Source of the DNA: Candidatus Omnitrophota bacterium
Lineage (GTDB): Bacteria > Omnitrophota > Gorgyraeia > Duberdicusellales > 4484-171
DNA: 64,000 nucleotides
Direction of reading: 5' to 3'
Assembly: GCA_021735655.1 (NCBI GenBank)
Contig: JAIPGM010000002.1
Location: 128,001-192,000, forward strand
The position numbers and the translations under genes are program-made. Under the pieces are notes generated by a model that saw only the letters and a list, made by a program, of their open reading frames with translations, did not search any database and was not told the origin of the DNA. Shown here piece by piece: positions 23,296 through 28,586 of this stretch (positions are counted from its first letter, which is position 1; each line of letters begins with the position of its first letter).

Positions 23296-23841
23296 ATGGA
23301 TGATAACCATAAAATGTTAAAGCGAACTAATTTTTTATCAGGATTTAGTTTAGTTGAAATTGTAGTGGTTGTGGCGATTATTGCTTTGGTTTCAGTGACG
23401 GTCGGAGTTTCTTTGTCGACCCTTGCACCGCGTGAGTTAGAAAATGAAGTTCAGAAGTTAACCGGTGACCTAGCTTGGGCTAAGTCGATGTCAATTTCAA
23501 CCCACTTTCATTACAAGGTTGATTTTGATATTAATTCTGACAATGCTATTACTTTTGCCGATAATGTTACCTACATTATATATACCATTGATCCTGACGA
23601 TCTTACAGTACCTCCGGTAGAGACAGTGGTAAAAAGAAGGATTTTGTCCGTTGATCGGATCACCTTAATTCCTGGTCTTGGCGGACCGGTTACTTTGCTT
23701 AATTTATCTTTTATGACTCCTCAAGGTAATCTTAATACTACGATTAGCGATCCGGTAACCATTCAATTGCAAAAGGGTAGTGCTGTAGCAAATGTAACTA
23801 TTCGTAACTTAACCGGTCATATAAGCTGGGAGCGACTATGA
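23296..23841 (+). CDS. Minor pseudopilin (GspH/FimT-like).
   Basis: The start is trimmed to the ATG just after the upstream stop. A second in-frame ATG at 23314 gives MLKRTNFLSGFSLVEIVVVVAIIALVSV, so the class III leader then has the processing site at the usual position. Confidence 0.6.
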   Translation: MDDNHKMLKRTNFLSGFSLVEIVVVVAIIALVSVTVGVSLSTLAPRELENEVQKLTGDLAWAKSMSISTHFHYKVDFDINSDNAITFADNVTYIIYTIDPDDLTVPPVETVVKRRILSVDRITLIPGLGGPVTLLNLSFMTPQGNLNTTISDPVTIQLQKGSAVANVTIRNLTGHISWERL

Positions 23842-24377
23842 TTAAATCTTTTAGAAAAGCCTTTAGCCTTATTGAAATTGCAGTAACTATAACTGTTTTA
23901 GGATTAGTTATCGCCGGTATTGTTCCGATGGTTAGTAGTGCGTTTCAAAGAATCCATAACTCAAACCGAAAATCAATGGCCTACCGTTTAGCCCAGGAAA
24001 TGATTGAAGAGCTACAAGCGACTAATTTGACTGATAATTTTTATGCTAATCTTTACACAAATCAAACTGCCGGTATTTGGATAACTACCCCTGGTTTAGT
24101 TGAGCTTGGGTCGGCAACTATTAATGGTAACGCAACTTATGGTGATCTAGGCTTTGATCCTAATCCGATTAACACCACTGATCAATATGATTATTTTAGG
24201 CGCTTGGTTCAAGGTTCTTGGGATCTTGATGCTGATTTGGTTGATCCAGTTGACGGCGATCCTGATGATCTTCCTGGTGAACTGGCGCGTGTCCGGGTGA
24301 CTGTAGCTTGGGATTTCAATCAAGATGGTGCAGACGATGATTCCATAACGGTTACGACTCAAAAGTCAGTGTATTAA
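23838..24377 (+). CDS. Minor pseudopilin (GspI/PilV-like).
   Basis: FRKAFSLIEIAVTITVLGLVIAGIVP leader-helix. Small size. Translationally coupled to its neighbours (ATGA overlaps). Confidence 0.55.
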   Translation: MIKSFRKAFSLIEIAVTITVLGLVIAGIVPMVSSAFQRIHNSNRKSMAYRLAQEMIEELQATNLTDNFYANLYTNQTAGIWITTPGLVELGSATINGNATYGDLGFDPNPINTTDQYDYFRRLVQGSWDLDADLVDPVDGDPDDLPGELARVRVTVAWDFNQDGADDDSITVTTQKSVY

Positions 24378-25648: not shown

Positions 25649-28586
25649 CCAAGGGGTATTTATTAAGGGTAATTGTAAAAAAGCTCAGACTTTGCTTTAT
25701 GTTGGTTTTGTTTTTTTGATCGTTGCCATGATTGCGGCCTTAGTAATGACCAGCACAACAAATAAGCTGAAAGTCTCTCGACAGCAAGGAAAAGGGGCTG
25801 AAGCTTATCAGTTAGCTCAGGCTGGTCTTGAATTGGCTAAGGTTGGCTTGAACTCTGATTGGAACAATTGGACCATGGACATTGGCGATGACAATATTCA
25901 TCATCGTGGTGAAGTTGGTCTCGATGAAACTAAAACTCTTGGCGAGGGGCAATATTGGGTTCGTGTAGAAGACGTGGGCACTAAGGGAGTGAGGCTAATC
26001 TCACACGGGTGGTTTGGCGACAGTCATCGAATAGTTGTTTTAGAGCTTGAAAACCAGGCTGCTGCGGCATCGTCAGCTGGTCTGGTTGCTTATTATAAAT
26101 TTGAAAATAATGTTATTGATGAAACCGGAAACAACAATGGAGTAAATCAAGGGGCTACCTTTGTTAGTGGTCAAATTAATCAGGCAGCCAGCTTTGACGG
26201 ATCTAATGACTATGTAGACGTAGCTAATGACCCGACCATAACGACTTTGTCGGCTTTGACTATATCCTCATGGATATATCCAGTGGCTGGAATAGCTGAT
26301 TATGATATTATTGTAAATAAAGAAAATGAATATGAGACTGCCTGGAGTTCTAACGGACTAAGAAGTGCAATTCGGACCGATACCAACGGTTGGTGGTGGA
26401 CTGCTGGTACTGGTGCCGGTCACCTACCGCTTAATCAATGGACTCATGTAGTTACTACTTGGGATGGGGCACAGATAAAAGAATATATTAACGGAGTACT
26501 ACAGTTGACGAGTAACCAATCTGGAAATACCACTCGTGACTCTGGGTCTCCGTTGAGAATCGGGCGTCGAAGTTCTGCCGCACCGACTTATCATTGGCGG
26601 GGTTCTATTGATGAAGTTAAGATTTGGAATCGGGCATTAAGCTCCCGGGAAATTAGCGAGTTATTTTTTGAACAAGGCGGTCAAGCAGCTGGCTTAGTTG
26701 TTGACTATCCCTTTGAGGGTAGTGCTACTGATGCTAGTCCTAATGGTGGCCACGATGGGACAGTAATCGGAGCTACATTCACTAACGGTAAATGTAGTCA
26801 GGCGGCTAGTCTTGATGGTAATGATTATATTTCAATTTCAGATGCTCTTGATTTAAGATTCGGCTTGCGACATAGTTTTGGCGGTTGGATTTATGCAACT
26901 GCAGATCCCGGTGACTGGGCAAGGATTATTGGTAAAGGCAGTTCAGGTGCTAGGAACTATGGTTTGTGGAGATTCACCAGCGGTGGCATGCTCTGTCAGT
27001 GGTTGATGCCAGGATGGTGGTGCAATTGTTGGACTAATGCCGGAGCAACGATCATTCCTTATAATCAATGGCATCATGCGATGTGTGTTTTTGATTATCC
27101 TTGGGCTAGGTTGTATGTTGATGGACAAGAAGTACATAGTTGTAACTGCGCTGGTACTCCGGTTACCAGTGCTGACCCGTTGACAGTAGGTTATGCTGGG
27201 TATCATCAGTACTTTCGAGGTTCAATTGATCAAGTTAAACTTTATGATCGGGCTTTATCTGGTGCTGAAGTTCAGGCATTGGTTGATCAGGACAATAGCT
27301 GTGAGGCCGGCGATGGTCTAGTTGCCTACTACCCTTTTGACGGTAATACCAGTGATTTAAGCGGTGCTGGAAATGACGGTACTCCACAAAACGGTGCTTC
27401 CTTTGTTGCTGGTAAGGTAAATCAGGCGGTTAGCCTAGATGGCAACAATGATTATGTGAGTGTGAATAATTTTGGTTCTTTTGCTACGATGACAGTGTCG
27501 GCTTGGATTTATCGGACTTCGGCTACTGCTACTCGAGAAAGCATAGTTTCTTACAAGGAAGGGGATGGGGTAAGTCAAGGTTTTGTGCTTTGTTTGAACG
27601 AAAACGGCTCCAGTCAATATCCGCGAATCTATGTTCAGGTCAATGGTGTTTGGCGAGCAGTCGAGCAGGCCGTGGCGATACCTCTGAATACTTGGGTTCA
27701 TTTGGCAGCTTCTTATGATGGTTCGTCGATAGTACTTTATCGAAACGGAGCTCAAGTTGCTTCCGGAAATTATGCTGGGAGTATGACCAATACCGGATCA
27801 CAAACAACTGGTATCGGTACCCGGGCCAGTTTGAATACGCATTATTTCCCTGGCCAAATTGATGAAGTTAAAATTTGGAGTTTGGCTTTAGACGCTGATG
27901 AAATTAAAGCCGAATTTATTGCTGGAAATAACGGCCCGATTGCTTACTATCCTTTTGAAGATAACTGGGATGATTTAAGCGGAATTGGAAATCATGGAAC
28001 TCCGGTAGGAAATCCATCTTTTGCTGTTGGAAAAATCGGCCGGGCAGCTGATCTAGACGGAAATGACTATATTAATTTAGGAGTGGCTAACGAACTTAAC
28101 CTCACTGATAATTTTACGGTTTCAGCTTGGTTCAATGCTCGTCAATTTAGTAATTATGGTACGATTATTAGTCGTCAGACTTATCCTTATAATGGTGGCT
28201 GGGGGTTGGTTGAAGGCAGCGCCATATTTTCTTTTATTGCTTTCCAGGGTGCCTCTTATCAATATTTATATGTTAATGCTAATCCACCAGTTAATGAATG
28301 GCATCATTTAGCGGTTGTCGTACACAATGGAACGCGCTATACTTATTTAGATGGCGTTCAGCAGTCAGCAACCGATACTTTTCCTCCGACACAAAATCCT
28401 GGTGCCCAGGCTGTAATTGGACGTTTTTATAGCAACTATAATAATTATTATTTCAACGGTTTAATTGATGAAGTTAAAGTATGGAATCGGGCTCTTTCGG
28501 TTAGTGAAATTATCGAGTTAGCTTCAGCGTCGCAAGCTACAACAACTGGCATCAAACCAGTATCTGGAACTTGGGGGGAAAGGTAA
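25623..28586 (+). CDS. Giant pilus-associated protein: a PilX_N-like N-terminal TM helix followed by 4 tandem LamG repeats (GspK/PilX-like tip-adhesin candidate).
   Basis: N-terminus QTLLYVGFVFLIVAMIAALVMT...GKGAEAYQLAQAGLELAK (PilX_N-like AEAG motif). Four roughly 205-aa repeats start with GLVAYYPFEG.D.SG.GN.GT and end with IDEVKIWNRALS. The C-terminus is KPVSGTWGER. Confidence 0.6.
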   Translation: MSRELVVINQGVFIKGNCKKAQTLLYVGFVFLIVAMIAALVMTSTTNKLKVSRQQGKGAEAYQLAQAGLELAKVGLNSDWNNWTMDIGDDNIHHRGEVGLDETKTLGEGQYWVRVEDVGTKGVRLISHGWFGDSHRIVVLELENQAAAASSAGLVAYYKFENNVIDETGNNNGVNQGATFVSGQINQAASFDGSNDYVDVANDPTITTLSALTISSWIYPVAGIADYDIIVNKENEYETAWSSNGLRSAIRTDTNGWWWTAGTGAGHLPLNQWTHVVTTWDGAQIKEYINGVLQLTSNQSGNTTRDSGSPLRIGRRSSAAPTYHWRGSIDEVKIWNRALSSREISELFFEQGGQAAGLVVDYPFEGSATDASPNGGHDGTVIGATFTNGKCSQAASLDGNDYISISDALDLRFGLRHSFGGWIYATADPGDWARIIGKGSSGARNYGLWRFTSGGMLCQWLMPGWWCNCWTNAGATIIPYNQWHHAMCVFDYPWARLYVDGQEVHSCNCAGTPVTSADPLTVGYAGYHQYFRGSIDQVKLYDRALSGAEVQALVDQDNSCEAGDGLVAYYPFDGNTSDLSGAGNDGTPQNGASFVAGKVNQAVSLDGNNDYVSVNNFGSFATMTVSAWIYRTSATATRESIVSYKEGDGVSQGFVLCLNENGSSQYPRIYVQVNGVWRAVEQAVAIPLNTWVHLAASYDGSSIVLYRNGAQVASGNYAGSMTNTGSQTTGIGTRASLNTHYFPGQIDEVKIWSLALDADEIKAEFIAGNNGPIAYYPFEDNWDDLSGIGNHGTPVGNPSFAVGKIGRAADLDGNDYINLGVANELNLTDNFTVSAWFNARQFSNYGTIISRQTYPYNGGWGLVEGSAIFSFIAFQGASYQYLYVNANPPVNEWHHLAVVVHNGTRYTYLDGVQQSATDTFPPTQNPGAQAVIGRFYSNYNNYYFNGLIDEVKVWNRALSVSEIIELASASQATTTGIKPVSGTWGER

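Follow-up and report, generated by a model that had tools for sequence, protein, structure and literature searches.

LamG-bearing J- and K-type minor pilins as a candidate multivalent tip adhesin of a type IVa-like pilus in Candidatus Omnitrophota

Results

Gene layout of the minor pilin locus

We analysed a stretch of 64,000 nucleotides (the window; positions 128,001 to 192,000, forward strand, of the 322,746-bp contig JAIPGM010000002.1, assembly GCA_021735655.1) from a metagenome-assembled genome (MAG) of a Candidatus Omnitrophota bacterium. The study concerns four consecutive minor pilin-like genes, g1 to g4, of which the last two carry LamG domains. All window genes described here are on the + strand, with positions counted in the window. 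The first two genes encode minor prepilins labelled H-type (g1, 23296..23841, GspH/FimU-like, 181 aa, or 175 aa from an alternative ATG at 23314) and I-type (g2, 23838..24377, GspI/PilV/ComGE-like, 179 aa). They are followed by g3 (24377-25648), a J-type pilin with one LamG domain, and g4 (25623-28586), in which a K-type (PilX-like) pilin head is combined with four LamG domains and a C-terminal tail.

The original prediction, made from the letters of the DNA, had described four translationally coupled genes with ATGA-type overlaps in the order GspH-I-J-K. Four overlapping open reading frames (ORFs) on the same strand were found, but the ATGA overlap itself (4 nt) joins g1 and g2 only, and g2 and g3 overlap by 1 nt in the sequence TAATG. 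The overlap between g3 and g4 is 26 nt when g4 starts at ATG 25623 and 8 nt when it starts at GTG 25641. The sequence GGGAG is located five bases upstream of this GTG, and the resulting product is identical in extent to the GenBank entry. The 987-aa ORF at 25623-28586 is present as described, but GTG 25641 is the likely start of g4 and gives 981 aa. As to the gene order, the J and K types were established for g3 and g4, whereas the H and I types are suggested by weak N-terminal matches and gene position.

Further downstream, a second K-type paralogue (g4', 32250..37061, +) encodes a protein of 1603 aa with a g4-like head, seven Laminin_G_3 domains and the tail GLKPVSGTWGER. It adjoins a PilO-like gene and precedes the gene for valyl-tRNA synthetase (ValRS), outside the minor-pilin block. 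In GenBank the products of g3 (MCF7907603.1), g4 (MCF7907604.1) and g4' (MCF7907608.1) have "LamG domain-containing protein" as their sole annotation.

Prepilin features of g1, g2 and g3

Class III signal peptides were recognised by a short basic leader, G, A or S at position -1, a hydrophobic residue at +1, Glu at +5 and a hydrophobic helix of ~20 residues. The predicted cleavage site lies between LSG and FSLVE in g1, with Glu at +5, and between RKA and FSLIE in g2. Both proteins passed the TIGR02532 prepilin motif (19.5 and 17.8 bits, respectively; cut-off 16.3) and scored just under the gathering score of Pfam N_methyl (PF07963; 18.1 and 20.8 bits, gathering score 21.2). The best NCBIfam match of g1 was GspH (E 8e-6), together with ComGD, and g2 weakly matched ComGE (E 9e-7), PilV and XpsI. 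These matches covered the N-terminal helix only and were far below the family cut-offs. Sequence-profile searches against PDB with g1, g2, the pilin module of g3 and the g4 head returned generic pilin helices only and were uninformative about subunit type. g1 is conserved in three related loci (L001, L002 and L004, described below). Its C-terminus (window 23791-23841) ends in TGH(I/V)SWERL, which is invariant in four genomes, and the W-E-R terminus is reminiscent of the K-type tail (SGTWGER).

The first 217 residues of g3 (24377..25027, +) form a J-type (GspJ/PilW-like) prepilin module. Its N-terminus, KVS followed by ITLIEAV, has Glu5 and gave no match to the TIGR02532 or PF07963 hidden Markov model (HMM). 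Two remote homologues, P0081 and P0082, have the canonical N-termini G before FTLIE and S before FTLLE, respectively, and P0082 matches PF07963. The module was found to have a J-type fold, with an N-terminal helix and a two-sheet globular domain, resembling the solved structures of GspJ, EpsJ and XcpW. One Laminin_G_3 domain (25028..25648, +; PF13385, aa 259-412, 91.8 bits, E 6.4e-26) follows directly after the pilin module and is itself followed by the stop codon, in agreement with the earlier description of the third gene as a pseudopilin fused to one LamG domain. As putative type IV prepilins, the four proteins g1 to g4 may be cleaved and N-methylated by a prepilin peptidase (PilD).

The g4 head is PilX-like

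The head of g4 (25623..26078, +) comprises a hydrophobic helix, the AEAYQLAQAGLE motif and a four-stranded sheet. Its N-terminus, KKA followed by QTLLYV, has no Glu5 and gave no prepilin-motif HMM match. Absence of Glu5 is normal in K-type minor pilins such as GspK and PilX.

Direct comparison of g4 with PilX_N (PF14341) gave 15.0 bits (E 0.024), below the gathering score of 25.5, and the N-terminus of g4' gave no PilX_N match in the Pfam scan. A word-index homologue search with the g4 head returned one fragment only. An exhaustive profile search with the same head returned 75 proteins; among the 73 that were scanned, 30 matched PilX_N (E<=0.01, best E 1.8e-14) and two of the family, P0017 and P0019, exceeded the PilX_N gathering threshold. 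When the g4 head was aligned with hhalign to an alignment seeded on PilX_N-positive proteins, homology was detected with a probability of 99.1% (E 4.3e-19) over 121 columns that cover both the helix and the sheet. The AlphaFold2 (AF2) model of full-length g4 has a long helix and a four-stranded sheet at residues 11-140, with a predicted local distance difference test (pLDDT) score of 86-98. GspK was also considered and was rejected, as NF037980 gave 15.2 bits (E 0.011) against a cut-off of 130 and the AF2 model has no alpha-domain.

Since the direct PilX_N and GspK matches were both sub-threshold, g4 was assigned by transitive and profile-profile evidence, which identifies it as a divergent PilX-like K-type minor pilin and not GspK. 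The PilX_N-like N-terminus that had been proposed for g4 is thus supported by the hydrophobic helix, the AEAYQLAQAGLE motif and homology at the level of the family, but not by a direct Pfam match. With g1 and g2 passing TIGR02532 and the g4 head homologous to PilX_N proteins, the N-termini appear to be of the prepilin type and not ordinary Sec signal peptides.

A 494-aa protein of a Clostridia MAG (CAYYHL010000182; L003, 804-2288) has a K-type head with 30% identity, including LGEGQYWV, and an unrelated C-terminal region, indicating that the head family extends outside Omnitrophota.

LamG domains of g3, g4 and g4'

The LamG array of g4 spans 26079..28547 (+) and consists of R1 (26079-26690), R2 (26691-27314), R3 (27315-27929) and R4 (27930-28547). 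Laminin_G_3 (PF13385, gathering score 27.6) matched four stretches of g4 (364 bits, E 6.7e-110) and seven domains of g4' (554 bits, E 3e-168), which together with the single domain of g3 makes 12 LamG domains in three genes. The four repeats expected in g4 were therefore recovered, and LVAYYPFE-type starts and IDEVKIWN-type ends were present at every unit as described.

Foldseek searches with the g4 model also identified LamG folds. The structures matched were neurexin-1alpha LNS1-6, laminin LG domains, the arabinan-binding domain 4 of AbnA (25% identity), trans-sialidase lectin domains and clostridial toxin Hc domains including that of tetanus toxin. With the full model the LamG matches dominated and nothing was found on the head. 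The haloarchaeal Tat-fimbriae family TafC (NF052521) was rejected as an assignment, as g3 and g4 scored 42 and 113 bits against a cut-off of 410 and the similarity was confined to the LamG part.

For most repeat pairs, identity is 27-43% at the protein level and 58-65% at the DNA level. The closest pair is g4 R3 and g4' R6 (75% in protein, 77% in DNA), and R1, R3 and R7 of g4' are mutually 59-67% identical in protein. The low identity of the repeats shows that the duplications are old and diverged, and argues against assembly artefact or repeat collapse. Recent gene conversion or cassette exchange among the repeats was rejected on the same grounds. At the sequence level, the divergence of the domains would be compatible with different binding specificities.

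A conserved tail behind the insert

The tail of g4 (28548..28586, +) has the sequence GIKPVSGTWGER, followed by the stop codon, and shows the [S/T]-W-x-E terminus of the PilX-like family. Besides GIKPVSGTWGER in g4 and GLKPVSGTWGER in g4', similar ends are PGSWREE in the L001 homologue and PGTWRER in P0007. In the head family, 47 of 73 proteins have W-x-[E/D/Q] in their last seven residues, compared with 0.9 expected from shuffled sequences. S or T usually precedes the Trp, and in 42 of the 47 the second residue after it is E. The motif is present in 24 of the 29 members longer than 200 aa, whatever the insert, and stand-alone head-family proteins of ~130 aa have the same tail 15-20 residues past the last sheet strand. 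In alignment A5, which was used for structure prediction, conservation of the tail Trp is 90% or more. In the AF2 model the linker before the g4 tail has a pLDDT of ~54, and the tail itself, which forms short beta bridges, reaches ~88. A mixed MAFFT alignment of head-LamG proteins with stand-alone PilX-like proteins was discarded because the beta domains were mis-aligned onto LamG; it had nonetheless revealed the shared C-terminal W-x-E tail.

The LamG array of g4 is thus an insertion between the pilin head and a conserved tail, and not a C-terminal appendage. As the tail is kept across the head family whatever the insert, and is modelled with a pLDDT of ~88, it is coupled to the pilin head and not to the LamG domains. 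Docking of the tail in cis onto the K head would be consistent with these observations.

Related loci and exchange of modules

L001 and L002 are located on Omnitrophota MAG contigs that were found by a genome scan with the head alignment, and L004 is an independent 379-kb metagenome contig of the Joint Genome Institute (JGI) that was reached via a g3 homologue. All three keep the order ATP-binding cassette (ABC) ATPase, permease, 303-aa protein, H, I, J, K, PilC and PilM. In L001 and L002 the I-type pilin carries a Cys-rich C-terminal module and the J-type pilin is bare (222 aa, without LamG). The K-type pilin of L001 carries an NHL/Vgb_lyase-type beta-propeller; in this locus ValRS follows directly, with no second K gene before it. 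The K-type pilin of L002 (P0010) has 322 aa with no Pfam domain detected. In L004 the I-type pilin is bare and there are two J-type pilins, one with LamG (428 aa, with the architecture of g3) and one with the Cys-rich module (383 aa). Its K-type pilin has one LamG domain, and after the PilMNO genes two more K genes are found, encoding one K head with NHL and one with NHL and four LamG domains. K heads with LamG also recur in P0007, P0009 and P0011, and the distant P0048 is composed of head, LamG and tail.

The recurrence of J-type and K-type pilins with LamG in related loci and family members establishes that the LamG fusions are real and recurrent. Within a conserved H-I-J-K scaffold, the I, J and K carriers exchange the modules that they display.

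The Cys-rich module has ~170 aa, ends in PRCSNNLDDDGDCL(I/V)D(F/Y)PDDPGC and has no Pfam assignment. It is found at 8278-9330 in L001 and 3616-4668 in L002, on the I-type pilin, and at 10001-11152 in L004, on the J-type paralogue. L001 and L002, and only these, have a 126-aa non-pilin ORF between the H and I genes (L001 7787-8167).

The surrounding pilus cluster

The original prediction had described the four genes as a minor-pilin operon. They were found to belong to a much longer pilus cluster. Upstream of g1, a split secretin is encoded at 13721-14488 (STN and Secretin_N) and 14527-16830 (Secretin with a C-terminal TPR extension of ~400 aa); the relatives encode a 757-aa secretin-TPR protein. 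It is followed by a PilB-like ATPase with an MshEN cyclic di-GMP (c-di-GMP) domain (16846-18567), which scored 623 bits with the PilB model (TIGR02538) and 588 with GspE, both below the cut-offs. Three pilin genes come next (18608-19300, 19375-19992 and 20295-20879), the third being near-paralogous to the second. A strong GC-rich terminator-like hairpin of 13 bp with a T-run (20012-20041, +) is located directly after the second pilin gene. A hairpin and T-run after a pilin gene is the usual pattern for a highly expressed major pilin gene. An ABC ATPase gene (20957-21667), preceded by a promoter-like site at 20889-20917, a permease gene without family match (21664-22425) and the gene for the conserved 303-aa protein (22383..23294) lead directly to g1. 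On the other side of g4 are a PilC/GspF platform protein (28620-29819; T2SSF, E 1.8e-43), PilM with a C-terminal extension (29821-31494; PilM_2, E 6.7e-10; TIGR01175 pilM, E 1.5e-18) and a PilO/GspM-like protein (31487-32182) with a weak GspM match. The same-strand arrangement of the cluster, the hairpin after the second pilin gene and the promoter-like site indicate that g1 to g4 are probably part of a long transcription unit and not a separate operon.

The 303-aa protein, which is syntenic in L001, L002 and L004, had no Pfam or NCBIfam match. It ends in CSSCK(K/Q) and, with the ABC ATPase and the permease, sits between the pilins and the minor pilins (window 20957-23294, +; L001 4896-7233; L004 5322-7656). 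This trio may resemble PilGHI, the ABC system encoded in the pil cluster of Myxococcus.

An MshE-type c-di-GMP-binding motif was detected in the ATPase (58 bits, cut-off 38). Two HD-GYP-type (HD_5) proteins, which have a CHASE2 sensor in one case and PAS domains in the other, are encoded nearby (8059-10329 and 45569-46921). The motif and these neighbours suggest c-di-GMP control of piliation. Upstream of the cluster, two large pilin-like proteins of 357 aa (5708-6781) and 334 aa (6841-7845) have GspG/ComGC-type N-termini and may be further modular pilins. A CFI-box-CTERM domain (94.8 bits, cut-off 40) was detected in the first of them. An 836-aa protein (11179-13689), encoded immediately before the secretin, resembles the Hvo_1808 family of surface proteins, with E 7e-30 but a score under the cut-off, and has DUF5684 at its C-terminus.

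No PilY1 match (IPR008707/PF05567) was obtained for any scanned ORF of the 64-kb window. A 'symbiotic' F-type ATPase has been reported beside Omnitrophota type IVa pilus (T4aP) loci; it was sought in the window and not found, the downstream genes being housekeeping genes.

Discussion

Our preferred interpretation, to which we assign a probability of roughly 75%, is that the locus encodes the four core minor pilins (H, I, J and K) of a type IVa-like pilus, with the LamG-bearing J and K subunits forming a multivalent tip adhesin. Type IVa pili are near-universal in Omnitrophota, where they have been proposed to serve host-cell attachment (PMC10066038). In other pili the four HIJK subunits start filament assembly and remain as its cap, K occupying the apex (PMC9934059; bioRxiv 10.64898/2026.09.18.752573). 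By analogy, g1 to g4 would be the first to come together at the inner-membrane platform, where they would prime the major pilin for polymerisation, and would finally cap the tip. The pilus tip would then show five lectin-like domains, contributed by g3 and g4, or eight if g4', which may be an alternative tip subunit, replaced g4. We infer from characterised systems the tip location, the adhesive function and the class of ligand. The LamG domains of g3 and g4 would bind carbohydrate or another ligand, and together on the tip they would give multivalent adhesion to host cells or particles through glycans or other ligands on their surface. As no PilY1 was found in the window, the modular J and K pilins probably serve as the tip adhesin and would thereby replace the PilY1 of classical diderm T4aP.

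Modular minor pilins with lectin-like modules at the pilus tip are already known. Of the modules found in modular type IV pilins, PF13385 is one of the commonest (Raynaud et al. 2021, PMC8179133). Both g3, a J pilin with PF13385, and g4, a K pilin with four PF13385 domains, fall within the definition of modular type IV pilins given there (PMC8179133), from which g4 differs in having the module inserted before a conserved tail. In Streptococcus sanguinis, PilC is a tip-located pilin with a concanavalin A (ConA)-like lectin module that binds sialylated glycans and heparin (PMC9934059; PDB 7OA7, 7OA8). Like g3, it joins a pilin to a ConA-like/LamG-superfamily domain, is encoded among minor pilins and is a proposed glycan binder of the tip; its partner minor pilin is I-like. 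However, the complex of the monoderm S. sanguinis is rudimentary and has three subunits, whereas the Omnitrophota locus has all of H, I, J and K and belongs to a diderm-type machine that includes a secretin. S. sanguinis PilC also has an immunoglobulin-like linker, while the LamG domain of g3 comes directly after the pilin module, and its module is a C-terminal graft, in contrast to the 4-7-domain array that is inserted in the Omnitrophota K-type subunits. The two are likened by architecture only.

The second comparison is with the ultra-small, host-associated Saccharibacteria TM7x, whose minor pilins PilX1 and PilX2 carry a lectin-like jelly roll and a beta-propeller, respectively; host binding is lowered when PilX2 is lost (PMC11623550). 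In architecture, TM7x and this Omnitrophota clade have two classes of module in common (jelly roll and propeller), carried on the largest or K-type minor pilin. PilX1 and PilX2 come, however, from another phylum, the monoderm-like Candidate Phyla Radiation (CPR); their single accessory domain is described as C-terminal, and neither tandem arrays nor a conserved terminal tail have been reported for them.

In classical T4aP the adhesin PilC/PilY1 is not a pilin and docks on the K subunit (PilK/PilX) by a C-terminal plug of 12 residues, and an engineered PilK-plug fusion is functional and bypasses the requirement for PilC (bioRxiv 10.64898/2026.09.18.752573). PilY1 has a Sec signal peptide and a C-terminal beta-propeller, whereas g4 has a pilin head instead of the Sec signal. 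The classical PilC/PilY1 and PilK are separate proteins; in g4 the adhesin, the K head and the terminal strand are in one polypeptide. By this analogy g4 may be a natural single-chain version of the PilK-plug arrangement. In such a protein the adhesin array would be looped out between the last sheet strand of the K head and the [S/T]-W-x-E segment, which would fold back to complete or stabilise the head. Inserts such as LamG arrays, NHL propellers and DUF7305 could then be swapped without disturbing assembly of the tip, and the I, J and K carriers of this Omnitrophota clade would be combinatorial, rapidly diversifying adhesin cassettes for recognition of hosts or particles. Taken as a whole, with g4 and g4' combining PilK, PilY1 and the plug in a natural single chain and with the head-insert-tail topology as a general rule of a large PilX_N subfamily in pili that lack PilY1, this is a more tentative reading, the odds of which we put below even.

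The pilus machinery could alternatively be that of a type II secretion system (T2SS). In that case g1 to g4 would build a periplasmic piston as its GspH-I-J-K pseudopilins, with LamG domains that recognise secreted substrates or push them and are not surface adhesins. We consider this unlikely. The platform protein scores higher as GspF than as PilC (286 against 252 bits) and the secretin higher as GspD than as PilQ (217 against 193), GspG is the best match of the pilins and GspH that of g1, and the g3 fold matches T2SS GspJ structures. The GspF, GspD, GspG and GspH scores are, however, all below the curated cut-offs and do not discriminate between the systems. The ATPase scores higher as type IV-A PilB (623 bits) than as GspE (588 bits) and has an MshE-type c-di-GMP-binding N-domain, and the actin-like protein present is PilM and not GspL. 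In the T2SS GspH-I-J-K tip complex (PDB 3CI0) the insert of GspK is an alpha-domain, whereas the g4 head is PilX_N-like and without the GspK alpha-domain, and the Omnitrophota locus has PilM and a PilB-like ATPase. A published survey assigns Omnitrophota loci to T4aP (PMC10066038).

About equally improbable is that g4 and g4' are signal-anchored envelope proteins, held in the membrane by the PilX-like helix, that have no part in a filament and present their LamG arrays on the cell surface or in the periplasm. Such an anchor would agree with the missing Glu5, with the non-canonical residue at -1 (A in g4, T in g4'), with the lack of a direct Pfam or TIGR prepilin-motif match on g4 and with the position of g4' outside the minor-pilin block. 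But K-type minor pilins are normally without Glu5, and the head is homologous to PilX_N proteins over both helix and beta-sheet in 121 aligned columns. In addition, g4 is translationally coupled to a J-type gene in the canonical K position, and K-type genes occupy the matching position in three related loci. That the LamG fusions are artefacts of assembly or gene calling, such as frameshifted neighbours or collapsed repeats, is very improbable, even though the sequence comes from a MAG and repeat-rich genes are prone to misassembly. The ORFs are uninterrupted, and the DNA identity of the repeats (58-77%) is too low for collapse. The J-LamG fusion recurs in L004 (428 aa) and the K-LamG fusion in P0007, P0009, P0011 and P0048, and the conserved tail past the array indicates that the reading frame is kept to the end.

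Several observations weigh against the tip adhesin of a type IVa-like pilus as we propose it, besides the better matches of the platform protein (GspF), the secretin (GspD) and the pilins (GspG) to T2SS models. An array of 100-170 kDa that is anchored at both ends would need to pass through the secretin. Neither a retraction ATPase in the window nor a prepilin peptidase gene among the window ORFs scanned was found, and the residue at -1 is A in g4, T in g4' and S in g3 instead of the canonical G. The H and I labels of g1 and g2 are based on N-terminal helix matches, size and gene position. The AF2 model of g4 is moderate overall (mean pLDDT 65.9, predicted template modelling score 0.39), and the LamG superfamily includes protein binders as well as glycan binders.

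Compared with the systems known so far, several features of the locus are new. The K-type subunit carries tandem arrays of 4-7 LamG domains, it has a head-insert-tail topology with a conserved [S/T]WxE terminus, and J and K (and I in the relatives) are modular together in a diderm-type machine without an evident PilY1. The presence of such a system in Omnitrophota is new as well.

Omnitrophota are uncultured, mostly ultra-small and suspected to be host-dependent or predatory, and in the context of their pili (PMC10066038) the locus names candidate tip adhesins. The differences in modules between related genomes are candidate determinants of host or substrate specificity. The conserved tail behind varied inserts is a testable natural counterpart of the PilY1 plug and of beta-strand augmentation of PilK, and it may help to explain how the K subunit is stabilised in pili without PilY1.

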